Below, piece by piece: positions 6,836 to 21,577 of a stretch of DNA of 40,858 nucleotides. The stretch lies in the sequence record SRR31156797_10768. The stretch is one strand, 5' to 3'. The notes beneath the pieces are model-generated. The model made no database searches, was not told the origin of the DNA, and saw only the letters and a list, made by a program, of their open reading frames with translations. Within the stretch, counting starts at the first letter, position 1. Every line of letters starts with the position of its first letter. A program made the position numbers and the translations under genes.

Positions 6836-6851
6836 ATGTTTTTTATTTTTA

Positions 6852-6870
6852 TAACATGTATGATGAGTCA
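6852..6870. promoter_or_regulatory. Putative FadR-type operator, site 1 (murK-murQ)
   Basis: TAACATGTATGATGAGTCA, 15/19 identical to the palindrome at 21658; just upstream of the murK start. Confidence 0.6.
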
Positions 6871-6985
6871 CACTCTGAGGTGAAATTATATTTTAATTTA
6901 GAATTTATCAACTAAATAGCATAAGAAAAGCGTGCTGAAATTATCTCTAAATCCTTTTGTTAATAGGAATTCCACTTTCATGATA

Positions 6986-7106: not shown

Positions 7107-9089
7107 ATGGAAAATCAGATATTACAATTTGGAGGAGAGCTTGATGTAGCTAAGTTGTATTACCAACCATCAGATGAATTCGATAAAACGGTAATGACAA
7201 GATATGAAAAAATGCCTGCTGATATTTTTGCAACAGCTGAGAAAGGTGCAAAATGGGTTGCTCATGAAATTGCAAATTTAATTAGGAAGAAGGCAGATCA
7301 AAATGATTTTTGTGTGCTTGGATTGGCCACCGGTGCAACACCTTTAGGAGTTTATGCAGAATTAGTACGCTTGCATAAAGAGGACGGATTATCGTTTAAA
7401 AATGTGATTACTTTTAATTTGGATGAATATTATCCAATGGTAAATAAGAGTGCGCAAAGCTATAATTATTATATGGATGATGTATTATTTAACCATATTG
7501 ATATACCAAGAGAACAAATTAATGTTCCTGATGGAGAAGTGAGTAAAGAGGGAATATTTAAATATTGTTCTAATTACGAATTGAAAATTGATTCTTTCGG
7601 AGGTCTTGATCTTCAAATTTTAGGAATTGGTAGGACAGGTCATATTGGATTTAATGAACCTGGTTCACAATTAGATTCAAAGACTCGTTTAATCATGCTT
7701 GATTCATTAACAAGACGTGATGCTGCCAAAGATTTTAATGGATTGAATAAGGTGCCAAAAGCTGCTATTACAATGGGAGTTGGAACCATTTTTAAAGCAA
7801 AACGAGTTATTCTAATGGCTTGGGGTGAGGGAAAAGCTTCAATTGTAAAAAAGGCGTTGGAAGAAAGTCAGAGAGATTCAGTTCCAGCAAGTTATTTGCA
7901 GCGTCATGATGATGTGCAATTTGTTTTAGACGTACCAGCAGCGAATGATTTAACACGAGTGAAGCAGCCATGGTTGGTTGGTAGTGTTGAGTGGGATCGT
8001 TTTTGGATTAGAAAAGCAGTTGTTTGGCTTTGTAACACACTAGAGAAGCCCATATTAAAGCTTACCAATAGAGATTATAATGACAATGGCTTAAGTGAAC
8101 TTCTTGCGTGGTATGGATCGGCTTATGAGGTAAATATTAAAGTTTTTAATGACCTGCAGCATACAATATCTGGATGGCCAGGAGGAAAGCCAAATGCTGA
8201 AGATACTTATCGCCCGGAAAGAGCTGTGCCAGCAAGTAAAAGAGTTTTGGTTTTTAGTCCACATCCCGATGATGATGTGATTTCTATGGGTGGAACTTTA
8301 AAAAGATTAGTGGATCAGAATCATGAAGTTCATGTTGCTTATCAAACCTCTGGAAATATTGCTGTTGCTGATGATGAGGCAGTTCGTTACTTGTCTTTTG
8401 TAAAAAGTTTTGCAAGAACACACGATACTAACGAAGGGAATCTTCAGTGTGTTATCGAAGATATTCGTAAGTTTTTACTAGAGAATAAGGAGCCAGGAGG
8501 AATTGATACTCCTGAGGTAAGAAGAATGAAAGCTTTAATTCGAAGAGGAGAAGCTAAAGCTGCTTGTCGATTTGTGGGTGTTCGCTCAAAAAATCTTCAT
8601 TTTCTTGATCTTCCATTCTATGAAACAGGAAAAGTGAAAAAAAATCCAATAGGAGAAGAGGATGTTCAAATTCTTGTTAATTTATTAAGAAAGGTGAAAC
8701 CACACCAAATATTTGCAGCTGGAGATTGGTCCGATCCGCATGGAACTCATCGTGTTTGTTGGGAGGGAATTTATCAGGCTCTTCAAATTGTAAAAGATGA
8801 GGAATGGATGGATAGTTGTTATGTTTGGTTGTATAGAGGAGCTTGGCAGGAGTGGGATTTGGATGAAATACAAATGGCAGTTCCAATTAGTCCGGAAGAA
8901 TTACAACTTAAAAGGAATGCTATTTTACGTCATCAGTCGCAGATGGAATCAGCTCCTTATATGGGTGGAGATTCTCGTTTGTTCTGGCAAAGATCTGAAG
9001 ATAGAAACAGAGCAACAGCTAATTTATTTAATAAGTTAGGCTTAGCAGAATACGAAGCGATTGAAGCATTTGTCAGGTTTATTGTTTAG
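7107..9089 (+). CDS. nagB: Glucosamine-6-phosphate deaminase fused to a PIG-L/LmbE-family deacetylase domain
   Basis: N-terminal LGLATGATP, TFNLDEYY, LGIGRTGHIGFNEPG, AITMGVGTI; C-terminal FSPHPDDDVISMGG, RRGEA, DPHGTHR; 660 aa. Confidence 0.92.
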   Translation: MENQILQFGGELDVAKLYYQPSDEFDKTVMTRYEKMPADIFATAEKGAKWVAHEIANLIRKKADQNDFCVLGLATGATPLGVYAELVRLHKEDGLSFKNVITFNLDEYYPMVNKSAQSYNYYMDDVLFNHIDIPREQINVPDGEVSKEGIFKYCSNYELKIDSFGGLDLQILGIGRTGHIGFNEPGSQLDSKTRLIMLDSLTRRDAAKDFNGLNKVPKAAITMGVGTIFKAKRVILMAWGEGKASIVKKALEESQRDSVPASYLQRHDDVQFVLDVPAANDLTRVKQPWLVGSVEWDRFWIRKAVVWLCNTLEKPILKLTNRDYNDNGLSELLAWYGSAYEVNIKVFNDLQHTISGWPGGKPNAEDTYRPERAVPASKRVLVFSPHPDDDVISMGGTLKRLVDQNHEVHVAYQTSGNIAVADDEAVRYLSFVKSFARTHDTNEGNLQCVIEDIRKFLLENKEPGGIDTPEVRRMKALIRRGEAKAACRFVGVRSKNLHFLDLPFYETGKVKKNPIGEEDVQILVNLLRKVKPHQIFAAGDWSDPHGTHRVCWEGIYQALQIVKDEEWMDSCYVWLYRGAWQEWDLDEIQMAVPISPEELQLKRNAILRHQSQMESAPYMGGDSRLFWQRSEDRNRATANLFNKLGLAEYEAIEAFVRFIV

Positions 9090-9195
9090 ATTTATCAATG
9101 CTTTATTTGGTTTAGGATTTCTTTATCCTAATTTGAGTTTTTTTTTGTTCAATTGTTATTGATTTACAGTGATATATTCAACTATGAATACTATT

Positions 9196-12100
9196 ATGAA
9201 GAAACCATATTATAAAATAATCGGATTGCTTGTAATCATGTTGATTTTCAATTTGAACCTTCAGGCTTCTGAAAAATCTAATCGTAAAAAGCGAAAAGCA
9301 GAAAAAGCAGCTTTAGAATTTGTACAGCATGCTTCAGCTGATTTTATATACAAGTTTAAGCTTGATAGTCTTCGATTAAATTCTGACAGTAAAGAAATTG
9401 TTGTGTATATGAATTCAGTGTTTTCATATATTCCATTTCGTATTGAAACTGTTGATCAGTATCAAACGAATCTTAAAAAAAATTTAGGAAGAAAATTTCG
9501 AAATTATTCTGTTCGCATTGAAACGATGGGAATGGATATTACAAAATTGGTTCCAAATTTATATCGAAAGGAAAATCATTCTTTAGATAAGGATCGTTTA
9601 TCGGTTTTAAAAGATGAAACAAAACCCTTGGTTCGCAGATTGAGTGGAAATACAATACATTCTGGTTTAGACGGAAATCACATCGCATTATGGCATTCTC
9701 ATGGTTGGTATTACGAGAATACTTTGGATAGATGGGAATGGCAAAGAGCAAGAGTTTTTACCACAGTGGAAGATATGTGGACTATGGAGTTTGTTGTGCC
9801 TTATATTGCACCAATGTTGGAGAATGCCGGAGCTATCACCTTGTTTCCCCGTGAAAGAGATGTTCAGAAAAATGAGATTATTGTTGATGCAGATTGGAGT
9901 TCAGGAAATTCAGAGTGCAAGGAAATAGGAAGTTGGGAAACCAATACTCAAAAAGGATTTGCAAACAGATATCCATTTTATCTGGAAGGTGAGAATCCAT
10001 TTGATATGGGAAGTAGTAAGCAAATTGAAGCAAGTGAAAATTCAACTTCCAGTGTACAATATACTCCAGAAATCCCGCAAAAAGGTGAGTATGCTGTTTA
10101 TGTATCCTATTCTTCTGATGATGATAATGTAACGGATGCCCACTATTCCGTTCATCATTCTGGTGGAACTTCAGAGTTTTTAGTGAATCAAAGTATGGGT
10201 GGTAAAACCTGGATCTATCTAGGAACTTTCCTGTTCGAAAAAGGAAAAAATCCTTTAAAAGGAATGGTCGAGTTGAACAATCAAAGTAACGAGCATGGTA
10301 ACTGGGTTTCTGCTGATGCAGTTCGATTTGGGGGAGGAATGGGAAATATTGCTCGTGGTACAAGCGATGAACTTGAAAGTTTAAAAATAGAAAGAAATAA
10401 TTTAGGTTTTGAAATGGATTCTGCAGCTTGGCAAAAATACACAAGCAATCGTCCGCGATATCATGAGGCTGCCCGTTACTATTTACAATATGCGGGAATG
10501 CCAGATTCCATTGTTTATAGTATCAATAAAGATTATAAGGCTGATTATAGCAATCGAGGTAAAGAGGCTGCTAAGTTTCAGAAACGTGAAGAAGGTAAAA
10601 CGGATTACAAGGATGATTACATGAGCAGGGGCGAGTGGGTTGATTATTTAATCGGTGCTCCTTCTGGTCCTACAAAACAAGTTGATGTTAAAGGTTTAAG
10701 TATTCCAATAGATATGGCTTTAGCCTTTCATACTGATGCCGGTATTACGCCTAATGATAATATAATTGGAACTTTAGCTATTTATAATACAACAAGAGGA
10801 GATACTGATATTTTTCCTAACGGACAATCGAAATGGGCTAGTCGTGATTTATGTGATATTGTGCAAACTCAGGTGGTCGATGATATTAGAAAACTATACG
10901 AACCAAAGTGGAATAGAAGAGGAATGTGGAATAAGCAATATTCGGAATCATACCGACCAAAGGTTCCAACTATGCTATCCGAAATGTTGTCGCACCAGAA
11001 TTTCGCTGATATGTATCAGGCAATGGATCCAAAATTCAAGTTTGATGTTAGTAGAGCTTACTATAAAGGAATTCTAAAATTTTTATCAACTCAGGAAGGT
11101 AGAGAATATGTGGTGCAACCATTACCTGTTGATCATTTTAGAATTGATGAATCTGAGAATGGTATTAGGTTAAGCTGGAATGCCGTTGATGATGAATTGG
11201 AGCCAACAGCAAAAGCCGATAAATATAAAGTTTACACGCGAATAAATAATGGTGGTTTCGATAATGGAATTGTTGTAAATGATAATTCTTACGAAATTCA
11301 AAATCTTGAATCTAATGTTATTTATAGCTTTAAGGTTACAGCTCAAAACGATGGTGGTGAAAGTTTTCCTTCGGAGATATTGGCTTATTGTAAGGCGGAA
11401 AATGGACAGAAACCATTTCTTATAGTTAATGGATTTGATAGAGTTTCAGCTCCACAAGGTTTTGATGATGGAAGGTATGCTGGTTTTATGAGCTCTGCAG
11501 ATGAAGGTGTGGCTTATAAAAGAAATATTGCCTACGTCGGCGATCAATATGACTTAGATCGTAAATCAAAATGGTTGGACGATGATGCTTGTGGTCATGG
11601 TTCTTCCTATGCTGATCAGGAGGATAAAATAATACCAGGCAATAGTTTCGATTATCCTTATGTGCATGGTGAGACAATTAAAACAGCAGGTTTTGGTTTT
11701 GTATCTATGAGTGATGAGGCTTTTGAGGAACTGGAATGGAACTCAGAACAATATTTTGGATTGGATCTTATATTTGGAGAGGAAAAAACAACATCGAGAA
11801 TATACGGATTGGAGAATAAAAGTTTTACCATTTACACTCCGAAAATGCGCAAGGCAATTCAAAAATACATTCAATCAAAAAATGCTAAACTGATTTTATC
11901 AGGTGCCTATATTGGTACTGATATTAAATTGTGTGGAGATTCTTTAGTGAAAGAATTTACCGAAAAAGAATTGCATTATCTGTTCAGAACAAATTATGCC
12001 AGCAAGTCGGGATTAGTTTCACATCCAAATGGAGTGAGAAAAGATTTTGATGGCAACTATCGATTTGAAACCGGATTTAATCCAAATATATACAAAGTTG

Positions 12101-12306
12101 AAGCTCCTGATGCCATTGAACCTGTTGGGAAAAATGCAAGCGTATTTTTACGATATATCAAGAATAACAAAAGTGCAGGAGTTCTTTACAATGGCGATTA
12201 TCAATCGGTAATATTGGGATTTCCGTTTGAGACAATAAAGACTGAGGAAGGGAGAATAGATCTGATGTCTAAAGTTTTAAAGTTTTTTAATAAAGAGAAG
12301 AAATAA
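9196..12306 (+). CDS. Secreted multidomain protein: split Amidase_3-like domain with Golvesin/xanthan-lyase-C-like insert, FN3 domain and C-terminal domain; probable N-acetylmuramoyl-L-alanine amidase
   Basis: Signal peptide from ATG 9196; IALWHSHG, VED, MLENAGA-PRERD, ALAFHTDA, PTMLSEMLSHQN; insert GEYAVYVSY...WIYLGTF...ADAVRF; FN3 LSW...YKVY...YSFKVTAQNDGGES. Confidence 0.7.
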   Translation: MKKPYYKIIGLLVIMLIFNLNLQASEKSNRKKRKAEKAALEFVQHASADFIYKFKLDSLRLNSDSKEIVVYMNSVFSYIPFRIETVDQYQTNLKKNLGRKFRNYSVRIETMGMDITKLVPNLYRKENHSLDKDRLSVLKDETKPLVRRLSGNTIHSGLDGNHIALWHSHGWYYENTLDRWEWQRARVFTTVEDMWTMEFVVPYIAPMLENAGAITLFPRERDVQKNEIIVDADWSSGNSECKEIGSWETNTQKGFANRYPFYLEGENPFDMGSSKQIEASENSTSSVQYTPEIPQKGEYAVYVSYSSDDDNVTDAHYSVHHSGGTSEFLVNQSMGGKTWIYLGTFLFEKGKNPLKGMVELNNQSNEHGNWVSADAVRFGGGMGNIARGTSDELESLKIERNNLGFEMDSAAWQKYTSNRPRYHEAARYYLQYAGMPDSIVYSINKDYKADYSNRGKEAAKFQKREEGKTDYKDDYMSRGEWVDYLIGAPSGPTKQVDVKGLSIPIDMALAFHTDAGITPNDNIIGTLAIYNTTRGDTDIFPNGQSKWASRDLCDIVQTQVVDDIRKLYEPKWNRRGMWNKQYSESYRPKVPTMLSEMLSHQNFADMYQAMDPKFKFDVSRAYYKGILKFLSTQEGREYVVQPLPVDHFRIDESENGIRLSWNAVDDELEPTAKADKYKVYTRINNGGFDNGIVVNDNSYEIQNLESNVIYSFKVTAQNDGGESFPSEILAYCKAENGQKPFLIVNGFDRVSAPQGFDDGRYAGFMSSADEGVAYKRNIAYVGDQYDLDRKSKWLDDDACGHGSSYADQEDKIIPGNSFDYPYVHGETIKTAGFGFVSMSDEAFEELEWNSEQYFGLDLIFGEEKTTSRIYGLENKSFTIYTPKMRKAIQKYIQSKNAKLILSGAYIGTDIKLCGDSLVKEFTEKELHYLFRTNYASKSGLVSHPNGVRKDFDGNYRFETGFNPNIYKVEAPDAIEPVGKNASVFLRYIKNNKSAGVLYNGDYQSVILGFPFETIKTEEGRIDLMSKVLKFFNKEKK

Positions 12307-12323
12307 TAAAAAGACGATATAAA

Positions 12324-13781
12324 ATGAGTGCAAAAATTACATGTTTTATTCCTTTCGGAACAAAAGAAGAAACGACAATAACGGTAAATGAGTTAAAGCA
12401 ATCAGCTTTAGTTTCAAAAATTTATCTTGTTGGAGATACAAAAGGTGTAGAAGTTGAAGGTGCGGAGCAGTTAACAGATAAAACCTTATCCGCAGGGAAA
12501 ACCATTCAGGAGATGGCAGATAAAACGAAGACAGAGTATGTGTTTATCTATACAAAAACAAGTGCACTAACTTTAGGACAATTGGCATTGGATCGTTTTT
12601 ATAAGGTAGCCACTGATACAAATAGCGGATTGGTATATTCAAATCATAGGGCAATTAAAGATGGTAAAGTTGAAAATCTTCCTGTTATAGATTATCAGGA
12701 AGGAAGCTTGAGAGATGATTTCAATTTCGGTTCGGTTTTATTTTACGATGCAAAAGTTTTGAAAGATGCAGCGAAAGATGTGGATGTAAATTATGAACAT
12801 GCAGGATTGTATGCATTGCGATTGGCAGTTGCAGCTCGTTCAGAATTTATAAGAATTCCAGAGGTATTGTACACCGAAGAAGAATTGGATACAAGAAAAT
12901 CTGGAGAGAAGATTTTTGATTACGTTGATCCTAAAAACCGTTCTGTTCAAATTGAGATGGAGGTTGCATGTACGGTACATCTGAAAAGAATTGGAGCTTA
13001 TTTGGAACCTAAATTTGCTGATGTTGCTTTTGATGAGGGAAATTTTAAAGTGGAAGCTTCTGTTGTAATTCCGGTTCGAGATCGTGTAAAAACAATTGAA
13101 GATGCTATTAAATCAGTGCTTGCACAAAAAGCTAATGTCGATTTCAACTTGATAATTGTTGATAATTATTCTACTGACGGAACAACTGAAATCATCCAAA
13201 AATATGCGGAGCAGGATTCTCGTTTGATTCATATCATACCAAAAAGGAAAGATTTGGGTATTGGTGGATGTTGGAATGAAGCTGTAAGCAATGAGATGTG
13301 CGGAAAGTTTGCAATTCAGTTAGATAGTGATGATTTGTATGCAGATGAAACAACTGTTCAGCAAGTTGTTGATGCATTTTATAGAGAAAATTGTGCAATG
13401 GTAGTTGGTACCTATCAAATGGTGAATTTCGATTTGGAAGAAATTCCTCCTGGAATTATCGATCATAAAGAGTGGACACCGGATAATGGTAGAAATAATG
13501 CACTTCGAATTAACGGATTGGGAGCTCCCCGAGCTTTCTATACACCAGTATTGAGAAATAATCCTATTCCAAATGTAAACTATGGTGAAGATTATGCTTT
13601 AGGTTTGGCAATTTCACGTAAGTATCAGATTGGAAGAATTTACAATCCTATTTATTTGTGTCGTCGTTGGGATGATAATTCTGATGCGTCATTGGATATC
13701 GAAAAAATGAATGCGCATAATACTTATAAGGATAGAGTTCGAACTATTGAATTAAAGGCGAGAAAACTGCTGATTAAATAA
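12324..13781 (+). CDS. Glycosyltransferase family 2 protein with two GT-A-like halves
   Basis: SVVIPVRDR, IIVDNYSTDGT, QLDSDD (DxD), YGEDY; degenerate N-terminal half; no signal peptide or TM segment seen. Confidence 0.85.
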   Translation: MSAKITCFIPFGTKEETTITVNELKQSALVSKIYLVGDTKGVEVEGAEQLTDKTLSAGKTIQEMADKTKTEYVFIYTKTSALTLGQLALDRFYKVATDTNSGLVYSNHRAIKDGKVENLPVIDYQEGSLRDDFNFGSVLFYDAKVLKDAAKDVDVNYEHAGLYALRLAVAARSEFIRIPEVLYTEEELDTRKSGEKIFDYVDPKNRSVQIEMEVACTVHLKRIGAYLEPKFADVAFDEGNFKVEASVVIPVRDRVKTIEDAIKSVLAQKANVDFNLIIVDNYSTDGTTEIIQKYAEQDSRLIHIIPKRKDLGIGGCWNEAVSNEMCGKFAIQLDSDDLYADETTVQQVVDAFYRENCAMVVGTYQMVNFDLEEIPPGIIDHKEWTPDNGRNNALRINGLGAPRAFYTPVLRNNPIPNVNYGEDYALGLAISRKYQIGRIYNPIYLCRRWDDNSDASLDIEKMNAHNTYKDRVRTIELKARKLLIK

Positions 13782-13802
13782 GATATTGATAGAATAAAAA
13801 AC

Positions 13803-13828
13803 GGAGTTCTGTTAATTTACAGAGCTCC
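13803..13828. other. Intergenic hairpin (stabiliser/processing site or minus-strand terminator)
   Basis: GGAGTTCTGT-taattt-ACAGAGCTCC; A-run on the 5' side but no T-run on the + strand. Confidence 0.5.
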
Positions 13829-13843
13829 ATAGAATATTTGGAG

Positions 13844-14728
13844 ATGAGAAAATTACATTCGATTATACTAATTCTGCTTGTTGTTGTTGTTACTGCTTGC
13901 AGTGGTAATACGAAGTCTCAGGATAAAAAGGTTAATGAAATTAAGCTTTCCGATTCTACAGATCAAGCCATATTTAATTCTATAAAGGAAATAGTTAAGC
14001 AACAATCATTAGATTCTTTGTCTATTGATCTTAGAATAATTGAAATTGCAAAGATGTTCTTGCAAACTCCTTATGTTGGCGGAACTCTGGAAGGGGATGG
14101 ATCTGAAAAACTTCGGGTTAATTTAAGAGAATTGGATTGTACCACCTATCTCGAGAATGTTGTTGTGTTGTCTGCAATTGCAGATAGAAAAGATTTTAAG
14201 GAGAGCGATTTCCTAAAAGAGTTGGAAACATTGCGCTATAGAAACGGCAAGCTGATTGATTATACTTCTCGCCTACATTATTTTACAGATTGGATTTTTG
14301 AAAATGAATCAAAAGGAATTGTCAATAATATAACTGCAGATATTGGTGGTGTTAAGTACGAAAAGAATATCGATTTTATGAGTACTCATGTTAGTAGTTA
14401 TGCTGCACTAAAGGCAGATTCTTCTTTTGTGAAGGTAATCCGTGAAAACGAAAAAGCAATCAACAATAGGGAGATGTATTTTATCCCCGAAGAGGAAATA
14501 TCTAAAGTTGAAAATGAGATTCACAATGGAGATTTGATTGCCATAACCACCAAGATTAAAGGATTGGAAATTTCTCATGTTGGAATAGCACTACATGTGA
14601 ATGATCGATTGCATTTAATGCATGCATCAAGTCGTGCTAAAAAGGTTGTGATTTCAGAAATCCCTCTTGCAGAGATGTTATTGAAAAATAGATTGCAATC
14701 GGGAATTATGGTTGTGAGAGTGCAATAA
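13844..14728 (+). CDS. DUF1460-family (AmiA-type, NlpC/P60-fold) N-acetylmuramoyl-L-alanine amidase, lipoprotein
   Basis: Lipobox VVTAC; FLQTPYVGGTLE, LDCTTYLE (catalytic Cys), LRYRNG, SRLHYFTDW, SHVGI, LMHASS. Confidence 0.88.
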   Translation: MRKLHSIILILLVVVVTACSGNTKSQDKKVNEIKLSDSTDQAIFNSIKEIVKQQSLDSLSIDLRIIEIAKMFLQTPYVGGTLEGDGSEKLRVNLRELDCTTYLENVVVLSAIADRKDFKESDFLKELETLRYRNGKLIDYTSRLHYFTDWIFENESKGIVNNITADIGGVKYEKNIDFMSTHVSSYAALKADSSFVKVIRENEKAINNREMYFIPEEEISKVENEIHNGDLIAITTKIKGLEISHVGIALHVNDRLHLMHASSRAKKVVISEIPLAEMLLKNRLQSGIMVVRVQ

Positions 14729-14760
14729 AATTGAATATTTAATTACCAGTTATATAAAAC

Positions 14761-15744
14761 ATGGATATAAACTGCATAGAAAAATTAGAATGTTTATTGG
14801 AAAAAAAATCTTCCGATCAGATATTAAGTAGCTTTCTGAATCAGCAGGTGAGAGATTGGTCTCTTGCAAAAGGAAATTATAAAGGATTGGAAAAGGTTGA
14901 GGAGAAAGAGTTTGAATTTGATGGATTTAAAATGAAAGTGCAATTTAATCCGGAAAGAATTCGTTCCTCTGCAGCTAAGGTTGATCAAAAAAGTATTGAA
15001 AACCGTGCTTGTTTCCTTTGTTTGGATAATCTTCCAGCAGAACAAGGAGGCATAGCGCAAGGCGATGATTTTGTGATTTTAGTGAATCCATTTCCTATAA
15101 TTCCACAGCATTTTACCATTCCAAAAGTTGCTCACGTAGATCAGTCTTTCTTGGATAATTTACAGGGAATGTTATCTCTGGCAAAAGATATGCAAGGATA
15201 CACTTTGTTTTATAATGGACCAAAATGTGGTGCTTCCGCCCCTGATCATATGCATTTTCAGGCTGGGAATAAAGGATTCATGCCGGTAGAGTTTGAGTAT
15301 TTTTCGTTAAAAGATAAATCGGAGTTACACCTTAAAACGGAAGAAATTGAGGTGAGATCATTTAATCATTATTTAAGAAAAATGATTAGTGTGGAATCGA
15401 CTAATACGATGGATTTGATAAAAGTAGTTACTGATTTTTACATAACTTTTGCTGAAATACAATTAGAGGAGAAAGAACCGATGTTAAATGTAATTTGTTC
15501 GTATGTGGATGAAAAATACATTATGCATTTGTTTCCAAGAAAATTGCATCGTCCAACACAATATTTTGTCGAAGGAGGTAAGCAATTGTTAATAAGTCCT
15601 GCTTCGGTAGATTTCGGTGGTGTTTTTATTACCCCACGTCGCGAAGATTTTGAGAAAATAACAGCAAGTGATATTGAAGATATTTTTAAACAAACTTGTG
15701 TTGATGAAGACACTTTCTCTACTCTTTGTGAGAACTTGAAATAA
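14761..15744 (+). CDS. DUF4922-like HIT-superfamily nucleotidyltransferase/phosphorylase (HxHxQ class)
   Basis: QFNPERIRS, CFLC, LVNPFPI, YNGPKCGASAPDHMHFQAG, ISPASVDFGG; no signal peptide. Confidence 0.8.
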   Translation: MDINCIEKLECLLEKKSSDQILSSFLNQQVRDWSLAKGNYKGLEKVEEKEFEFDGFKMKVQFNPERIRSSAAKVDQKSIENRACFLCLDNLPAEQGGIAQGDDFVILVNPFPIIPQHFTIPKVAHVDQSFLDNLQGMLSLAKDMQGYTLFYNGPKCGASAPDHMHFQAGNKGFMPVEFEYFSLKDKSELHLKTEEIEVRSFNHYLRKMISVESTNTMDLIKVVTDFYITFAEIQLEEKEPMLNVICSYVDEKYIMHLFPRKLHRPTQYFVEGGKQLLISPASVDFGGVFITPRREDFEKITASDIEDIFKQTCVDEDTFSTLCENLK

Positions 15745-15755
15745 TCCAATTAACT

Positions 15756-17087
15756 ATGAAAATAAAAGAGCCACAACTACGAGTTGGAATAATGTACGAA
15801 AAAGAGATTTCGTTTCAATTAAACGGAATTTATGTACTTCAACAAAATGGAAAAAAATATACTGGAAATCAGCAAGCAAAATTTGTCGATGGAAAAATTG
15901 TTTTCGATGGATTATGCGAGAATGAATTGATTTTCGATCCTGAAAATGAAAAAGAGGGATGTTTTGATCTCTTTGGTGTTACCATTGGAATTAAATTTCA
16001 TTGGGAGAGAAAAGAGGATCAGAAATTTAAAGGATCCTTGCATTTTATTGTGGAAGAGGAGAAACTGACGGCAATTAATGTGCTTTCTCTGGAAGATTAT
16101 CTGATTAGCGTAATTTCTTCTGAAATGAGCGCTACAAGCAGTATGGAACTTTTAAAAGCACATGCTGTAATCTCAAGATCGTGGTTGATGGCTCAGGTAA
16201 TTAAAGGTGAGGAATTACTACAGTCAAATACAAATTACCAAAGCATTGTTGAGACGGAGGATTCCTATATTAGATGGTATGATAGAGAAGATCATGTTAA
16301 TTTCGATGTTTGTGCAGATGATCATTGTCAGCGCTATCAGGGAATTACCAGGCAATCAACTCAATTGGTAGTCGAGGCAATTGAATCTACGCGTGGTTTA
16401 GTCTTAACCAGTGATGGAAAAATTTGCGATGCTCGTTTCTCAAAGTGTTGTGGAGGAGTTGCTGAAACATTTGAAAATGTTTGGGAACTGGAAAATCACA
16501 AATACTTGCAAGCAGTAATTGATAATCCTCAAGCACCAGTTGGTTACGATATGAGCTTGAAAAAAGAAGAGGCTGCTGATCGATTTATTCGCACCTCTCC
16601 TGAGGCATTCTGCAATACTACGGATAAGGAAATTCTTTCGCAGGTTTTAAATGATTACGATCAGGAAACCATGGATTTTTATCGCTGGAAAGTAGAATAT
16701 ACTCAGGAGGAAATTTCAGAATTAATAGAGAGAAAAACAGGAAAAGAGTTTGGACAGATTTTGGATCTTATTCCAGGTGAACGTGGAGAATCAGGACGAT
16801 TAATTACAATGAAAATTGTAGGGAGTAAACGTTCATTAACCATTGGGAAGGAATTGGAAATTCGAAAAGTACTTTCTGAATCGCACCTATATAGTTCTGA
16901 ATTTGTAGTTGATAAATTGGATGTGCAAAATGGAGTTCCATCTAAATTTGTTTTGATTGGTGCTGGTTGGGGACATGGAGTTGGTCTTTGCCAGATAGGG
17001 GCAGCTGTAATGGGAGCCAAAGGATACAAACATGATGAAATTCTACTTCACTATTTTAGAGGAGCTGAATTGGAGAAAAGATATTGA
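15756..17087 (+). CDS. SpoIID/LytB domain protein (lytic-transglycosylase fold)
   Basis: LEDYLISVISSEM (catalytic Glu position), LKAHAVISRSW, DVCADDHCQRYQG, FSKCCGG, GAGWGHGVGLCQIGA, ILLHYF; no signal peptide. Confidence 0.9.
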   Translation: MKIKEPQLRVGIMYEKEISFQLNGIYVLQQNGKKYTGNQQAKFVDGKIVFDGLCENELIFDPENEKEGCFDLFGVTIGIKFHWERKEDQKFKGSLHFIVEEEKLTAINVLSLEDYLISVISSEMSATSSMELLKAHAVISRSWLMAQVIKGEELLQSNTNYQSIVETEDSYIRWYDREDHVNFDVCADDHCQRYQGITRQSTQLVVEAIESTRGLVLTSDGKICDARFSKCCGGVAETFENVWELENHKYLQAVIDNPQAPVGYDMSLKKEEAADRFIRTSPEAFCNTTDKEILSQVLNDYDQETMDFYRWKVEYTQEEISELIERKTGKEFGQILDLIPGERGESGRLITMKIVGSKRSLTIGKELEIRKVLSESHLYSSEFVVDKLDVQNGVPSKFVLIGAGWGHGVGLCQIGAAVMGAKGYKHDEILLHYFRGAELEKRY

Positions 17088-17090
17088 TTA

Positions 17091-17254
17091 TAGATATGAG
17101 ATTTAAGATGTGAGATATTAGACAGACTATTGTTGTGTTTTTTTTCTCACCTCTTAAGTGTCTAAAAATAAAAGAATGCATTATAAAATAAGATGTGGAA
17201 ATGTATATTTTATGAGATGTAAATAGTCTCAGATCTAACATCTTAAATCTAAAA
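17091..17254. repeat. Inverted repeat built from 7-nt tandem units flanking about 100 bp of spacer
   Basis: Arms 17099-17123 and 17226-17250 are reverse complements at 22/25; units tagatat/gagattt/aagatgt/gagatat on the left and tctcaga/tctaaca/tcttaaa/tctaaaa on the right. Confidence 0.7.
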
Positions 17255-17262
17255 AAAGAATA

Positions 17263-18564
17263 ATGTCTAAAATAAAATCAAAAACTCGCTCACCTTGGGC
17301 ATGGATTCCATCCTTATATTTTGCTGAAGGTATTCCCTACGTGGTTGTTATGACAGTTGCAGTTATCATGTACAAACGACTGGGAATTTCAAATACAGAT
17401 ATTGCACTTTATACTTCATGGTTGTACCTGCCTTGGATGATCAAACCATTTTGGAGTCCAATTGTTGATATTTTAAAAAGCAAGCGCTGGTGGATTGTAA
17501 GCATGCAACTGCTGATTGGTGCTGGTTTAGCAGGTGTTGCATTCACTGTTCCAACTACCTTCTTTTTTCAATCTACTTTGGCTTTCTTTTGGCTATTGGC
17601 TTTTAGTTCGGCTACTCATGATATAGCTGCCGATGGGTTTTACATGTATGCCTTAGATTCTCATAAACAATCATATTTTGTAGGTATTAGAAGTACTTTC
17701 TACCGTTTGGCAATGATTACTGGGCAAGGTTTGTTGATTATTTTGGCAGGATATTTTGAAACTGCAAACTTATTTGGGAATCCTGAGAATGATATTTCTA
17801 TGGCATGGTCTCTTACCTTTTTAATACTAGCTGCAGCTTTCATTATCATTTGCTTCTACCATAAATTTGCTTTGCCACATCCACAAGATGATGAGGAGAG
17901 AAAAGTGAAAAGTTTTTCTGGTGTTTTCGAAGGTTTTGGTGAGACCATTTCTGCGTTTTTCATGAAGAAAGATATTTTTAAAATTCTGGGATTGATCCTT
18001 GTTTATCGATTAGGGGAATCTCAGTTGGTTAAAATGGCTTCTCCTTTTCTTCTCGATCCTGCGGAAGTTGGAGGCTTGGGCTTATCAACCAGTGACGTTG
18101 GTTTGGTGTATGGAACAATTGGAATTCTCTTTTTAACTGTAGGAGGAATTCTTGGTGGTTATGTTGTATCTCGAAAAGGGTTAAAATATTGGCTATGGCC
18201 AATGGTAATTGCGATCAATCTACCCAATTTAGTATATGTATACCTTTCTTATGCATTGCCTGATTCTTTTGTGCTTGTTTGTGCATCGGTCGCTGTAGAG
18301 CAATTTGGCTATGGATTTGGATTTACGGCTTACATGCTTTATCAGATTTATGTATCCGAAGGAAAGCACAAAACGGCGCATTTTGCATTTTGCACGGGTT
18401 TAATGGCTGCGGGAATGATGTTTCCAGGTATGATTTCCGGCTGGATTCAGGAAATGATTGGATATCAGCATTTCTTTGTGTGGGTAATCATTTGTACCAT
18501 TCCAAGTTTTATTATGGTGAAATTAATTAAGGTTGATCCAAAGTTTGGTATCAAGCAAAAATAG
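17263..18564 (+). CDS. ampG: AmpG-family MFS muropeptide permease
   Basis: LYFAEGIP, LPWMIKPFWSPIVD, FSSATHDIAADG, LVYRLGE, EQFGYGFG; about 12 hydrophobic segments. Confidence 0.88.
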   Translation: MSKIKSKTRSPWAWIPSLYFAEGIPYVVVMTVAVIMYKRLGISNTDIALYTSWLYLPWMIKPFWSPIVDILKSKRWWIVSMQLLIGAGLAGVAFTVPTTFFFQSTLAFFWLLAFSSATHDIAADGFYMYALDSHKQSYFVGIRSTFYRLAMITGQGLLIILAGYFETANLFGNPENDISMAWSLTFLILAAAFIIICFYHKFALPHPQDDEERKVKSFSGVFEGFGETISAFFMKKDIFKILGLILVYRLGESQLVKMASPFLLDPAEVGGLGLSTSDVGLVYGTIGILFLTVGGILGGYVVSRKGLKYWLWPMVIAINLPNLVYVYLSYALPDSFVLVCASVAVEQFGYGFGFTAYMLYQIYVSEGKHKTAHFAFCTGLMAAGMMFPGMISGWIQEMIGYQHFFVWVIICTIPSFIMVKLIKVDPKFGIKQK

Positions 18565-18606
18565 TTTTTATAAGAATCAGATTATTAATGTCAGCTAAGT
18601 ATCACG

Positions 18607-19146
18607 ATGTCAAATATGAAAAAACGAATTGCATTTCTTGGAGATAGCTTAACTCATGCAGGAAGGTGGGAAGAGTTTTTTCCAAATGTCGATGTATTTA
18701 ATCATGGAATTCCAGGCGAGATCTCGATTGAAATTCTTTCACGTTTAAATGATGTGCTGCGAAAGCAACCTGATATTATTCTTGTGATGATGGGTATTAA
18801 TGATTTGGGAAGTGGAATCAATACGAAAGAGATTTTGAGTCATTACAGTCAACTTATTGATCGGGTTAAGAGAGAATCAAAGGCAAAATTAATTGTACAG
18901 AGTTTGCTACCTGTAAATTTTCAATTGTTCCCTATTACTATTTTTAATGCTGCGGATATTTTAAAATCGAATGACTTGTTGCAGTCTCTTTGCGAAAAGG
19001 AAGAAATCACTTTCGTGGATTTGTATTCATTTTTTACAACTGAATCCAATGAGTTGATGAAAGAGTACACCTATGATGGATTGCATTTAAACCATTCAGG
19101 ATATCGGATTTGGAAAAACAGATTATTGTCGGAAAACCTATTATAA
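18607..19146 (+). CDS. SGNH/GDSL-family esterase
   Basis: Block I FLGDSLT, block II NHGIPG, block III MGIND, block V DGLH; no signal peptide. Confidence 0.9.
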   Translation: MSNMKKRIAFLGDSLTHAGRWEEFFPNVDVFNHGIPGEISIEILSRLNDVLRKQPDIILVMMGINDLGSGINTKEILSHYSQLIDRVKRESKAKLIVQSLLPVNFQLFPITIFNAADILKSNDLLQSLCEKEEITFVDLYSFFTTESNELMKEYTYDGLHLNHSGYRIWKNRLLSENLL

Positions 19147-19150
19147 GATT

Positions 19151-20260
19151 ATGGAAAAATCAAAAAGATTAATGGCTTTGGATGCCTTTCGTGGATTAAC
19201 CATTGCAGCGATGATTACTGTTAATACTCCTGGAAGTTGGAGCCATGTTTATGCTCCGTTATTACATTCGGAATGGCATGGTTGCACTCCAACAGATTTA
19301 GTATTTCCATTTTTTTTATTTGCTGTTGGAGTGGCAATGTTTTTTGCTTTTGGAAAGTTTAATCATCAATTAAATGCAGAAGCTGGGAAGAAAATAGTAA
19401 AACGTACTGTTATTATATTTGGCATTGGTTTGTTGCTTAATGCATTTCCATTTTATCATATCAAGATGGAAAATTTAAGGATAATGGGCGTTCTGCAGCG
19501 AATTGCTTTGGCTTATGGTATTGGAGGTTTTCTTTGTTTGTCATTGAATAAAACAAGATTATTATATGTATCAGCAGCTATCTTATTTTCTTATTGGGGA
19601 TTGGTGTATTTCCTTGGCGGAGATAATCCTTATAGTCTAGAAGGTAACCCTACCATAGCTTTCGATACAATGATTTTAGGAGCAAGTCATATGTACAAAG
19701 GTTTTGGGATCACATTCGATCCTGAAGGTTTGTTTAGCACACTTCCAGCTATTGTCACGGTTATTTTAGGATATCTAACGGGAGCTTTAATTTCTAAATC
19801 GGAGAGGAAAAATATTGTTCCAAAACTATTAACGTTTGGAACTTTGGGAGTGATATTAGGACTGTTTTGGAGTTTAGGCTTTCCAATTAATAAACCGATT
19901 TGGTCGAGTTCCTATGTGATTTATACTGCTGGTTTGGCTCAATTGCTTATGGCAGTAATGATATATCTTATCGATATTCTGGATTATAAGAAATGGGCTC
20001 ACCCTTTTCTTGTTTTTGGAATGAATCCCTTATTTATTTTTGTACTTTCCGTTGTTTGGGTGAAAGTAATTATTTACATGCTTAGCTTTACTGATGATAC
20101 AGGAAAAGTGATGAATGGCTATTCTTGGTTGTATCAGAATGGATTTGCTTCATGGGCAGGAGCTTTGAATGGTTCTTTACTCTTTGCTTTGAGCCATATT
20201 TTGGTGTATTGGCTAATTGTGCTGTTTTTATATCGGAAACGTATTTTTATTAAGATATAA
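19151..20260 (+). CDS. HGSNAT-like (DUF1624/NagX-type) polytopic membrane acetyltransferase or sugar-uptake protein
   Basis: RLMALDAFRGLT, MITVN, LHSEWHGCTPTDLVFPFFLF, GVLQRIA, FDPEGLFS, PINKPIWSSSY, FGMNPL. Confidence 0.85.
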   Translation: MEKSKRLMALDAFRGLTIAAMITVNTPGSWSHVYAPLLHSEWHGCTPTDLVFPFFLFAVGVAMFFAFGKFNHQLNAEAGKKIVKRTVIIFGIGLLLNAFPFYHIKMENLRIMGVLQRIALAYGIGGFLCLSLNKTRLLYVSAAILFSYWGLVYFLGGDNPYSLEGNPTIAFDTMILGASHMYKGFGITFDPEGLFSTLPAIVTVILGYLTGALISKSERKNIVPKLLTFGTLGVILGLFWSLGFPINKPIWSSSYVIYTAGLAQLLMAVMIYLIDILDYKKWAHPFLVFGMNPLFIFVLSVVWVKVIIYMLSFTDDTGKVMNGYSWLYQNGFASWAGALNGSLLFALSHILVYWLIVLFLYRKRIFIKI

Positions 20261-20263
20261 GAG

Positions 20264-20289
20264 AAAAGCTTCGGAATTCCGAAGCTTTT
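20264..20289. terminator. Bidirectional terminator between convergent genes
   Basis: Perfect 26-bp palindrome AAAAGCTTCGGAATTCCGAAGCTTTT. Confidence 0.8.
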
Positions 20290-20299
20290 TTATTTTGCA

Positions 20300-21577
20300 T
20301 TATTGGTACAACCAATATTTTTTGGATCTCTCTTTAAATTCTTCAGAAGGATCATTCCAAAGTTTTATAATATCCTCTACTCTGTGGTTTTTAGAAAATA
20401 GAGTTCTTATTTTATTGCTACCACAAACTTTATCAAACATGCTTAATCGCGATTGATCACACATTTCGAAAATATTTTTTTCGGGATACATTCTATTTAG
20501 TTCTTGTAGAACGTAGAATTGTATTAAAGATAATGGAGCTTTTTGGATATCAGTAAAGTGAACCTGTACACCATGAATCATTTTCCCTTTGCTAACAGAG
20601 TAATATGGTTTGTAGTGAATTGGTCGAAAAAGAATGCCTGGTAAATTTAGATCATTCAGATTTTTAGAAAGGTCATCTGCATTTATCCATTCGGCTGCGA
20701 ACAATTCAAATGGCTGAGTATAACCTACACCTATTGATATTGTGTACAATTCCCCTAATATTCCTGAAATAGGATAATAAATTGCACTTAATGAGTTTGG
20801 AATGTGAGGCGATGTTGGAACCCAAGGCAATTGGGTATCTGCAAAAAGCATATTTCTTTTCCAGCCCTGCATTTTAATAACAGTTAATTTGCATTTATTT
20901 CCATTTTTCAATAATCCTTCATTGTTAATATAGTTTGCCAATTCGCCACAGGTAAGTCCGTAAACATATGGGATAGGAAATTGACTGACAAAGGAAATAT
21001 AATCTGACTCAACCAAACTGCCTTCTACCTTTAATCCACCAATAGGATTTGGACGATCCAATACAATTAACTCCAGATCGTTTTCTGCACAGGCTTCCAT
21101 TGCCAAGCCCATTGTACTGATATAAGTGTAGGAACGAACTCCGATATCCTGAATATCATAAACCAATGCATCCAATCCTTTGAGCATTTCAGCATTGGGC
21201 TTTTTATTTCTTCCATATAAGGAGTAAACTTTGAGCCCCGTTTTTTTATCGATGTAAGTTCCAACTTTATCTCCAGCTGCATGATCTCCACGAATTCCAT
21301 GCTCTGGACTATAAAGAGCTTTTACTTTAATTGCTGATGCTGCGTGTAAAAGATCTATAGTAGATTGAAGGTGTTGATTTACACCAGTTGGATTGGTAAT
21401 AATTCCAATAGATTTGCCATTTAAACTCTCAAAATTAGTTTTTTGTAGTACATCTATTCCTGTTAGTACTTTTTGAGCATTTATTTCATTTAGTGAAAGT
21501 ATATGAGTGAACACAAAAATTACAAGGAGTGTTAGTTGTGTTTTATTGATGCGGATGCGCTTGTTGGTCAGTTTCAT
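20300..21577 (-). CDS. namZ: Exo-beta-N-acetylmuramidase (DUF1343/GH171)
   Basis: IITNPTG, SPEHGIRG, YSLYG, YDIQDIGVRSYTYISTM, LDRPNP, GLTCGELA, WVPTSPHIP; N-terminal hydrophobic signal. Confidence 0.92.
   Translation of the reverse strand: MKLTNKRIRINKTQLTLLVIFVFTHILSLNEINAQKVLTGIDVLQKTNFESLNGKSIGIITNPTGVNQHLQSTIDLLHAASAIKVKALYSPEHGIRGDHAAGDKVGTYIDKKTGLKVYSLYGRNKKPNAEMLKGLDALVYDIQDIGVRSYTYISTMGLAMEACAENDLELIVLDRPNPIGGLKVEGSLVESDYISFVSQFPIPYVYGLTCGELANYINNEGLLKNGNKCKLTVIKMQGWKRNMLFADTQLPWVPTSPHIPNSLSAIYYPISGILGELYTISIGVGYTQPFELFAAEWINADDLSKNLNDLNLPGILFRPIHYKPYYSVSKGKMIHGVQVHFTDIQKAPLSLIQFYVLQELNRMYPEKNIFEMCDQSRLSMFDKVCGSNKIRTLFSKNHRVEDIIKLWNDPSEEFKERSKKYWLYQ

Follow-up and report, generated by a model that had tools for sequence, protein, structure and literature searches.

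A 40,858-nucleotide stretch of DNA (sequence record SRR31156797_10768, hereafter the window) carries, between positions 12,324 and 18,564, genes for a family 2 glycosyltransferase (GT2), a DUF4922 protein and a SpoIID/LytB protein, all on the same strand as a gene for an AmpG-family permease. These three proteins, referred to below as the trio, are probably a coupled cytoplasmic unit that processes muropeptides and substitutes for NagZ, as judged from comparative genomics. The substrates would be AmpG-imported N-acetylglucosamine-N-acetylmuramic acid (GlcNAc-MurNAc) and GlcNAc-1,6-anhydroMurNAc (GlcNAc-anhMurNAc); once these are inside, the GlcNAc-beta-1,4-MurNAc bond would have to be cleaved and, where AnmK is missing, the 1,6-anhydro ring opened. 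The particular chemistry that we propose, in which the GT2 protein would run in reverse, the DUF4922 protein would catalyse phosphorolysis and the SpoIID protein would act at the MurNAc anomeric centre, is doubtful; for the unit and its chemistry taken as a whole, we lean slightly against. An earlier note on this DNA had described a GT2 protein with an intact DxD motif, a HIT protein with an HMHFQ motif and a SpoIID protein, all lacking signal peptides and co-oriented with ampG. The open reading frames (ORFs), Pfam and NCBIfam matches and motif alignments bear out this description. The note named these three proteins and AmpG correctly but overlooked the gene of an exported AmiA-like lipoprotein in the same interval, a position in which this gene occurs only in Marinifilum/Labilibaculum-type loci (L001-L003, L005, L013).

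The Pfam model PF00535 matches the GT2 protein at 81.1 bits (cut-off 23.3), over residues 246-380 alone. In the C-terminal domain (residues 245-485), the QLDSDD motif (D334, D336, D337) and D280 are unchanged in 36/36 aligned homologues, and E422-D423 are also kept; by analogy to SpsA, we take D280 and the DxD motif to have the usual roles. This domain is an intact GT2 domain of the GT-A fold, with VIA-align Z scores of 18-21 to SpsA, TarS, TarP and PmHS2. An AlphaFold2 model of the entire protein contains two GT-A domains (predicted local distance difference test, pLDDT, 89; predicted template modelling score, pTM, 0.85), and its top Foldseek matches are tandem GT-A enzymes: the chondroitin polymerase K4CP (E 1e-20), PmHS2, LH3 and LARGE1. 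The call of a GT2 enzyme with a DxD motif thus stands for the C-domain; what had been missed is the second, N-terminal GT-A domain of about 240 residues, which lies outside the Pfam match. Folded alone, the N-domain (residues 1 to ~230) has a pLDDT of 90 and aligns to K4CP, WrtF and SpsA with Z scores of 17.5, 16.1 and 15.3. It has no canonical DxD motif, with YTK78 at that position. Its first 90 residues contain almost no invariant positions and no conserved nucleotide-binding half; its second half is highly conserved (R91, S128-L-R-D-D-F-x-F-G136, R166, E180, E187, R206, E211, E213). The N-domain may be a degenerate GT-A domain that binds the acceptor or a partner protein. A MurU-like nucleotidyltransferase, to which a match to IspD (Z 12.8) might point, was ruled out because the isolated domain is closer to GT2 enzymes (Z 15-17.5) and has no conserved glycine-rich loop. 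Around the C-domain, the homologue alignment contains a ring of invariant arginines (R395, R403, R411, R432, R438, R447, R448) that could suit an anionic partner, for example the lactyl carboxylate of MurNAc. Like K4CP (2z86) and PmHS2 (8viw), the GT2 protein combines two GT-A domains in a single chain, with the Foldseek match to K4CP spanning both and a VIA-align Z of 22.4 for the entire protein. Unlike them, it has an N-domain without DxD and no sign of polymer synthesis or export; identity is 16-18%.

The DUF4922 protein (PF16269, 210 bits) is predicted to be an enzyme of the GalT/GDPGP1 branch of the HIT superfamily. Its motif H163-M-H165-F-Q167 aligns with HKHLQ of Apa2, the yeast diadenosine tetraphosphate (Ap4A) phosphorylase; H163, H165, F166 and Q167 are unchanged in 20/20 homologues and position 164 is M or L. 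When a profile of these 20 homologues was compared with the PDB, Apa2 (4i5t) was matched over the HIT core, including HxHxQ, at E 0.0011. A single-sequence search was marginal (E 0.03), and the Ap4A_phos_N model scored 20.3 bits, under its cut-off of 23.1. PF26216 (GDPGP1_C in the Atlas) is precomputed on all listed DUF4922 homologues. In the Atlas, the closest clusters with a name are those of GDP-L-galactose and GDP-D-glucose phosphorylases (score 0.92, 182-187 shared features), which serve as a lead only. Enzymes of the HxHxQ branch move a nucleoside monophosphate from a nucleoside diphosphate (NDP)-sugar or Ap4A to phosphate or sugar-1-phosphate. The HxHxQ motif is shared with VTC2/GGP, GDPGP1 and Apa2, whereas the protein described here is bacterial, is fused or linked to GT2 and SpoIID, and matches no solved structure better than at E ~0.001. 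Literature searches for DUF4922 by name returned only plant and animal GGP/GDPGP1 papers. Two DUF4922 proteins (P0131, P0135) carry the domain C-terminal to a WCX (and WYL) domain, typical of ligand-sensing regulators.

The SpoIID protein is matched by TIGR02669 (SpoIID_LytB) at 170 bits (cut-off 83.3) and by PF08486 at 84 bits (cut-off 23). S122-E123-M124 is unchanged in 29/29 homologues and aligns with ASEM of the SpoIID structure 4RWR; E123 is presumably the catalytic glutamate. SpoIID of Bacillus and Clostridioides is a lytic transglycosylase that acts on denuded glycan, and to our knowledge every characterised SpoIID/LytB protein acts outside the membrane. The window protein resembles these in its domain match above cut-off, the aligned SEM glutamate and a C-terminal GHGVG motif. 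It differs in having no signal peptide or anchor, an extra N-terminal region, a ~100-residue insertion, cytoplasmic partners and an occurrence in non-sporulating Gram-negatives.

Signal peptides were assessed by a Kyte-Doolittle heuristic (19-residue windows) and by eye. By these means, neither a hydrophobic N-terminus nor a 19-residue hydrophobic window was found in any of the three proteins. This distinguishes the trio from the Golvesin_C, AmiA-like, NamZ, GHL10, SusD and other proteins of the same window, which have clear hydrophobic N-termini. A longer SpoIID N-terminus is not possible because its reading frame begins only 11 nt past the stop of the preceding gene. The homologues in the fetched loci (62 GT2, 80 DUF4922, 60 SpoIID) align from their first residues with no signal-like extensions, and the 60 SpoIID homologues, of which two are DUF4922 fusions, all begin with one conserved N-terminus (M..EP..VGI). 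The extracytoplasmic location that is the hallmark of characterised SpoIID/LytB proteins was thus found neither for the window protein nor for these 60.

Gene fusions join the DUF4922 domain to both of its partners. Among DUF4922 proteins of at least 574 residues, 2126 had E ≤ 0.001; of the best 120 of these 2126, 113 carry PF08486 (SpoIID), five PF00535 (GT2) and two WCX. Pfam verified DUF4922-SpoIID fusions in an isolate genome of Carboxylicivirga linearis (L052) and in P0219, which was found on 53 contigs, as well as GT2-DUF4922 fusions in P0127, P0156 and P0139. SpoIID forms the C-terminal half of its DUF4922 fusions. If starts had been mis-called or the proteins left the cell by non-classical export, SpoIID could act on the sacculus as its characterised relatives do. 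We give this next to no chance: the window gene has no possible in-frame upstream start, the homologues share one conserved start, the best long DUF4922 proteins carry SpoIID in nearly every case, and in three Pfam-checked fusions SpoIID lies C-terminal to a HIT enzyme that requires nucleotides. One DUF4922-SpoIID fusion (P0148, 897 aa) has its SpoIID domain split by a DUF559/REase_MTES_1575 endonuclease-like domain, which looks like the insertion of a mobile endonuclease.

Gene order was counted in 80 fetched DUF4922 loci, with evaluable loci as denominators. The GT2 gene lies immediately 5' of the DUF4922 gene in 62/71 loci, and in two more an AmiA-like gene stands between them; SpoIID follows within 3.2 kb on the 3' side in 54/76, and AmpG is on the same strand in 43/55. 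Other arrangements are seen in Prolixibacteraceae-type loci (Golvesin-DUF4922-NamZ paralogue) and in loci of Ignavibacteria, Melioribacter and Acidobacteriota type, which have GT2-DUF4922 alone or SpoIID-GT4 upstream. Genomes in which the genes are dispersed have exactly one full-length GT2 and one SpoIID orthologue each (5/5). In the Prolixibacteraceae-type loci (L081-L083; L073 7014-9938), the GT2 gene is parted from DUF4922 and adjoins a GHL10 (PF02638) gene, and DUF4922 stands between the Golvesin_C protein and the NamZ paralogue (~33% identity).

Genome-level tests were made on relatives, mainly G001, which holds locus L001 on a Marinifilum chromosome and whose DUF4922 protein is 79% identical to that of the window. 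In a phyletic profile of 121 genomes evenly drawn from the phylum of G001, a strong DUF4922 match was present in 18, and all 18 have one full-length GT2 (E ≤ 1e-179) and one SpoIID (E ≤ 1e-157). Parts of the trio alone were seen only in G079 (GT2) and G123 (GT2 and SpoIID), and two further genomes had weak partial PF16269 matches. The SpoIID match of G123 is in two pieces (G123:C1:352731-353807; model positions 65-254 and 285-441), with no PF16269 in that genome, and may be a diverged or decaying copy. Fisher's test for the co-occurrence gives p ~1e-19, a value inflated by relatedness. At least eight of the 18 trio genomes have the genes on separate contigs, so the link is not just inherited synteny. 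Fusions at both junctions, together with co-occurrence in 18/18 even where the genes are unlinked, argue that the three proteins belong to one pathway and support the conclusion that GT2, DUF4922 and SpoIID are cytoplasmic and act as one functional unit. The same two observations count against a looser association, in which SpoIID would be a plain hydrolase of anhydro-muropeptides or MurNAc-GlcNAc and the GT2 and DUF4922 proteins unrelated housekeeping enzymes, for example removing stray NDP-sugars as proposed for animal GDPGP1. A hydrolase would be the simplest answer to the anhydro bond, and animal and plant relatives of DUF4922 do act on GDP-hexoses (by the Atlas lead and literature listings); even so, we consider this account very unlikely. 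Prediction of a GT2-DUF4922 complex gave an ipSAE of 0.00 in two runs made without alignments or controls, and carries no weight either way.

The profiles of AmpG and NagZ bear on what the unit replaces. AmpG was scored as present at a TIGR00901 match of E ≤ 1e-20, and NagZ-like genes at an NF003740 match of E ≤ 1e-30. TIGR00901 is the best-scoring family for the window AmpG and matches it at full length with 180.9 bits, below the cut-off of 350; this cut-off looks tuned to Proteobacteria, since no match in the 121-genome sample reaches it and two of the three control genomes with a match do. Co-conservation with ampG had been set in advance as the check on which the idea of a NagZ-replacing module could fail, and it held up: AmpG is present in 17/18 trio genomes as compared to 27/103 others (Fisher p 4e-8). 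NF003740 matched in 115/121 genomes, and the six with no match comprise four from the trio group (G013, G033, G061, G077) and both partial-trio genomes (G079, G123), a distribution with a Fisher p of 1e-5. In non-trio genomes with AmpG, a NagZ-like gene of 347-537 aa lies near ampG (12 cases noted from coordinates), and 4/4 of the proteins examined have no signal peptide (G088, G060, G032, G026). The NagZ-like proteins examined in 13 trio genomes all have a signal-like hydrophobic N-terminus or a lipobox (G001, G008, G057, G065, G109, G125, G041, G045, G073, G101, G105, G113, and G037 with three copies). Thus, a cytoplasmic NagZ was not found in 17/18 trio genomes, second copies in G008, G057 and G065 being outside this count. 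G001, the nearest complete genome, has a single GH20 enzyme, which is a lipoprotein.

By gene content, AmpG is accompanied in the phylum by one of two alternative sets, the trio or a signal-less NagZ that often comes with AnmK, and this alternation is the strongest support for replacement of NagZ. The proposal of a cytoplasmic module in place of NagZ, made in the earlier note, is accordingly supported by comparative genomics, through the fusions, the co-occurrence, the presence of AmpG and the missing cytoplasmic NagZ. Compared with the AmpG-NagZ-AnmK recycling of E. coli and Pseudomonas, the trio genomes would share the import of GlcNAc-anhMurNAc by AmpG and the handling of both the glycosidic bond and the anhydro end in the cytoplasm, and non-trio genomes of the phylum retain a NagZ without signal peptide, in many cases with AnmK as well, near ampG. 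The difference is that trio genomes would use non-homologous enzymes, with a phosphorolytic, nucleotide-dependent route proposed instead of hydrolysis. A protein with glycoside hydrolase family 9 (GH9) and carbohydrate esterase family 4 (CE4) domains, whose gene separates those of SpoIID and AmpG in many Bacteroidales, was ruled out as an alternative cytoplasmic NagZ because it carries a signal peptide. Such secreted fusions of CelD_N, GH9 and a polysaccharide deacetylase (L028 12188-14731; L033 12260-14731; L014 12316-14788, in two frames) may deacetylate and then cleave glucosamine (GlcN)-containing wall fragments in the periplasm. Many Bacteroidales also have a long AmpG of 553-625 aa (L017 12358-14217, L036 14738-16585, L060 14804-16681 and others), against 433 aa in the window; only its C-terminal half matches TIGR00901 in the sampled genomes, so it has an insertion or an extra domain.

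Other steps of the recycling route are distributed differently. The earlier note had stated that the window contains no NagZ, AmgK or MurU, and this holds for the 28/30 ORFs of at least 120 aa that were scanned, the other two being nested within larger genes. An amgK-like/murU-like pair is, however, carried elsewhere in G001, and such adjacent pairs were found in 3/3 trio genomes examined (G001, G105, G125), with AmgK and MurU as best NCBIfam names at scores below the curated cut-offs. MurQ is not associated with the trio (14/18 vs. 70/103, p 0.58). From these pairs and the MurQ counts, the trio neither replaces AmgK/MurU nor is tied to MurQ catabolism. The suggestion of a non-homologous shortcut to UDP-MurNAc replacing AmgK/MurU therefore lost ground, all the more as T. 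forsythia is reported to use AmgK/MurU (PMC7670621). AnmK is present in 8/18 trio genomes and 72/103 others (p 0.056); it occurs in the window and is absent from G001. In species without AnmK, the trio may also cover part of its role.

These profiles also bear on an ATP-free anabolic salvage route, in which a reversed SpoIID reaction would use the bond energy of 1,6-anhydroMurNAc to make MurNAc-beta-1,4-GlcNAc, a reversed GT2 would convert this to NDP- or UDP-alpha-MurNAc, and the DUF4922 protein would equilibrate the product with MurNAc-alpha-1-phosphate, the substrate of MurU. AnmK, MupP and AmgK would all be bypassed. The bond specificity of SpoIID (MurNAc-GlcNAc) would suit the substrate of such a GT2 and set the three enzymes in one line. 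AnmK is missing from 10/18 trio genomes, and four of the 18 (G033, G061, G105, G125) lack both AnmK and MurQ, so that MurNAc can only be reused in them. T. forsythia, which has neither MurA/MurB nor a predicted AnmK, nevertheless uses GlcNAc-anhMurNAc (PMC7670621). Yet the route is uphill thermodynamically, GlcNAc would still have to be removed from GlcNAc-anhMurNAc, and the product would be partly undone by DUF4922. The amgK/murU-like pairs were retained in each of the three trio genomes examined, MurQ is present in most trio genomes, and in most loci the trio lies beside a MurK-like kinase and MurQ. Overall, we think this route distinctly unlikely.

In the chemistry that we propose for a NagZ-substituting unit, the C-terminal GT-A domain of the GT2 protein would run in reverse, converting GlcNAc-beta-1,4-(anh)MurNAc and NDP to NDP-alpha-GlcNAc and (anh)MurNAc. 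GT2 enzymes invert. The DUF4922 protein would then catalyse phosphorolysis of NDP-GlcNAc with inorganic phosphate (Pi) to GlcNAc-1-phosphate and NDP, and by removing the NDP-sugar would pull the unfavourable first step forward. The pair would amount to a two-protein inverting phosphorylase in which the nucleotide is catalytic. A reversed GT2 reaction and a HIT enzyme that interconverts NDP-sugar and sugar-1-phosphate had been suggested in the earlier note, which assigned no role to SpoIID. SpoIID would either open the 1,6-anhydro ring, as a lytic transglycosylase in reverse whose acceptor is either water or a sugar, or cut MurNAc-beta-1,4-GlcNAc bonds of imported fragments. Free MurNAc could pass to the MurK-like kinase and MurQ, both encoded in the window, or to AmgK/MurU. 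Catabolism that relies on a glycosyltransferase working in reverse has a precedent in sucrose synthase with UDP-glucose pyrophosphorylase, in which the energy of the glycosidic bond is saved and the NDP-sugar then becomes a sugar-1-phosphate. That system differs in using a GT-B/GT4 enzyme, a high-energy sucrose bond and pyrophosphate (PPi) rather than Pi, and the analogy serves as a working model only. A fuller version, in which the SpoIID-type enzyme would re-use the bond energy of 1,6-anhydroMurNAc, the reversed tandem GT-A protein would yield NDP-GlcNAc (possibly NDP-MurNAc) and the GDPGP1-like HIT phosphorylase would recycle the nucleotide, seems to us unlikely.

Several points weigh against a NagZ-substituting unit with this chemistry. 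We know of no GT-A/GT2 enzyme that runs in reverse physiologically. A beta-1,4 HexNAc bond is far lower in energy than an NDP-sugar, which makes the first step uphill by an estimated 10-15 kJ/mol. The fate of GlcNAc-1-phosphate is unexplained, with no mutase identified in the locus, and the GT2 N-domain, although strongly conserved in its second half, has no role in the model. One trio genome, G008, has no AmpG match; another, G089, has a 640-aa GH3 protein with no obvious signal peptide and is a possible exception to the NagZ pattern; and the N-terminus check left out the second NagZ-like copies of G008, G057 and G065. The presence of AnmK in eight trio genomes means that the trio does not simply replace AnmK. 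The sampled genomes are related, so that the Fisher p-values overstate independence, and their completeness is not reported; signal peptides were called only by the hydrophobicity heuristic and by eye. Finally, the SpoIID-GT4 pairs of Ignavibacteria-like genomes, and GT2-DUF4922 pairs away from AmpG, look more biosynthetic than catabolic. In these genomes a signal-less SpoIID gene is followed by a GT4 gene, with stop and start overlapping or adjacent, and then by housekeeping batA-like and hflX-like genes (L088 7776-10222; L094 8070-10507; L080 7272-9977; G005:C2:100457-102897). The GT4 protein matches generic GT4 models only, and with it as query no counterpart was found in the three Bacteroidia genomes searched.

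Such pairs would fit a trio that works forward, with DUF4922 supplying or proofreading an NDP-sugar, the tandem GT2 (with GT4 in Ignavibacteria) building a cytoplasmic glycoside or glycoconjugate, and SpoIID trimming or cyclising it. Their product, induced once wall fragments become available, might serve in signalling or storage or as the precursor of a glycan. The tandem GT-A proteins of known structure, K4CP and PmHS2, are synthases, and the T. forsythia operon was once termed "glycosylation related" (PMC5388701). But the loci inspected contain no flippase, polyprenyl-phosphate transferase or membrane anchor, the trio goes with AmpG and with the absence of a cytoplasmic NagZ, and its neighbours in Bacteroidia are catabolic (MurQ, kinase, NamZ, a D-lactate dehydrogenase-like protein). 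We therefore judge forward biosynthesis to be improbable. The D-lactate dehydrogenase-like protein is a large flavin adenine dinucleotide (FAD)-oxidase/4Fe-4S/CCG protein encoded in these loci (L058 14906-17872; L014 16427-19030) and fits the use of D-lactate released by MurQ.

The gene cluster itself is not new. In T. forsythia, Tanf_08345-08370 are annotated as xanthan lyase, gtf, gtf, lytB, ampG and ybbC/namZ1, are co-transcribed with murTKQ and are activated by GppX; the operon had earlier been called "glycosylation related" (PMC5388701). TfAmpG, functionally characterised (PMC5388701, PMC7670621), is reported to transport GlcNAc-MurNAc and GlcNAc-anhMurNAc, and secreted NamZ1 frees GlcNAc-MurNAc, a cargo of AmpG, from glycans (bioRxiv 2021.12.02.470905). 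Tanf_08360 is there a "putative lytic transglycosylase", and in the available text Tanf_08350 and Tanf_08355 are given no function (bioRxiv 2021.12.02.470905). MurNAc goes into AmgK/MurU or MurK/MurQ; MurA/MurB are lacking, and the strategy by which GlcNAc-anhMurNAc is used without a predicted AnmK "remains to be explored" (PMC7670621, 2020). A similar cluster has been described in B. fragilis (PMC5388701; bioRxiv 2021.12.02.470905). The module was thus fairly called unexplained as to its function, but as a gene cluster it had already been described in these two species. The T. forsythia papers, in the text available, call both gtf genes "glycosyltransferases" and report no fusions, co-occurrence or NagZ pattern. 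Searches on Tanf_08350/08355/08360, TfLytB and GlcNAc-MurNAc phosphorylase gave nothing beyond the 2017, 2020 and 2021 T. forsythia papers, in coverage mostly outside subscription journals, where a characterisation could be missed. The old locus tags TF1058/TF1059 led only to unrelated bioinformatics papers, titles and abstracts on T. forsythia MurNAc from 2022-2026 contained nothing on the trio genes, and a 2023 MurK paper has AmpG only in its references. In the literature searched, no function assigned to the cluster was found, nor any account of the three-way coupling, the fusions or the NagZ pattern.

By gene order, the window operon corresponds to the T. forsythia ampG operon: both have a secreted "xanthan lyase"-like protein, a GT2, a second "gtf", lytB and ampG, with namZ, a kinase and murQ nearby. 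The window adds the AmiA-like lipoprotein, a GDSL esterase, NagX and AnmK. Loci of Dysgonomonas and Bacteroides share this order, T. forsythia being compared by its annotated order, and from this conserved order Tanf_08355 would be the DUF4922 gene. The Golvesin_C/fn3 gene lies 5' of the GT2 gene in many of the fetched loci, and its product appears by position to be the counterpart of the "xanthan lyase" Tanf_08345.

Among the Bacteroidota concerned are Bacteroides that abound in the gut and T. forsythia, a periodontal pathogen auxotrophic for MurNAc. In the available text of the T. forsythia and B. fragilis papers, the cytoplasmic handling of AmpG-imported GlcNAc-(anh)MurNAc is not explained. 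Because three specific proteins are named here as a single cytoplasmic unit, one that appears in the absence of a cytoplasmic NagZ, this question becomes directly testable. Nucleotide-dependent phosphorolysis, if it takes place, would be a new mode of glycoside cleavage; it would also give the SpoIID fold a new role in the cytoplasm and a GT-A enzyme a physiological reverse reaction. If the fuller version with re-use of the anhydro bond energy is correct, the trio would include the first two-protein, nucleotide-catalysed glycoside phosphorylase and would provide gut Bacteroides and T. forsythia with recycling independent of NagZ and AnmK. Either would bear on the scavenging and release of muropeptides in the gut and oral microbiota.

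The window has a G+C content of ~35%. Because the nearest DUF4922 homologues are from Marinifilum species (88-92% identity), its source is a Marinifilum-like member of the Bacteroidota. Pfam and NCBIfam scans identify the region as a peptidoglycan-utilisation locus (Table 1). The plus-strand genes from 9169 to 20260, with intergenic gaps of 4-175 nt, form one apparent operon; from the GT2 gene to ampG, the gaps are 11-175 nt. A hairpin ends both this unit and the convergent namZ gene and is the sole convincing terminator: over 9000-20400, five terminator-like sites were found against 5.9 expected by chance, with no other at a plus-strand gene end. A scan for sigma-70 promoters, which does not cover those of Bacteroidota, gave 47 sites against 45.8 expected, no more than chance.

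Table 1. Features of the peptidoglycan-utilisation locus, in window coordinates
Feature	Position	Strand	Evidence and remarks
MurQ	5158-5994	-	Pfam/NCBIfam
MurK-like kinase	6005-6871	-	Pfam/NCBIfam
NagB-like deaminase + PIG-L/LmbE deacetylase fusion, 660 aa	7107-9089		NF002557, 1048 bits; no signal peptide
Secreted Golvesin_C/fn3 protein, 1045 aa	9169-12306	+	PF25275, PF00041; hydrophobic N-terminus; first gene of apparent operon
GT2 protein, 485 aa, signal-less tandem GT-A	12324-13781	+	PF00535, AlphaFold2, Foldseek, VIA-align
AmiA-like lipoprotein, exported	13838-14728	+	PF07313; lipobox-type N-terminus MEMRKLHSIILILLVVVVTAC
DUF4922 protein, 327 aa, signal-less	14761-15744	+	PF16269
SpoIID/LytB protein, 443 aa, signal-less	15756-17087	+	PF08486, TIGR02669
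AmpG-family major facilitator superfamily (MFS) permease, 433 aa	17263-18564	+	TIGR00901; several hydrophobic segments
GDSL esterase, signal-less	18607-19146	+	Pfam/NCBIfam, hydrophobicity
NagX, multi-pass membrane protein	19151-20260	+	Glucosamine N-acetyltransferase model, far below cut-off; last gene of apparent operon
Bidirectional hairpin terminator	20262-20291	both	13-bp stem, T-run on each strand
NamZ (GH171) exo-muramidase with signal peptide	20300-21577	-	PF07075, PF20732, N-terminus

Other genes of the locus code for GHL10, a sodium:solute symporter, a beta-lactamase-fold protein, AnmK, NlpC/P60, an Ala-Glu epimerase, a SusC/SusD pair, NAGPA and a metallophosphoesterase. The NagB-PIG-L fusion is a candidate cytoplasmic deacetylase-deaminase acting on GlcNAc-6-phosphate that leaves MurQ. 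The GDSL esterase and NagX, directly 3' of ampG, might jointly reverse the O-acetylation and N-deacetylation of foreign peptidoglycan ahead of its catabolism. The MR_MLE (L-Ala-D/L-Glu epimerase-like) protein at 29896-31035 begins with MKIDRRKFLGNTGLLLGASC, which resembles a twin-arginine or lipoprotein export signal, and may thus work in the periplasm rather than the cytoplasm.

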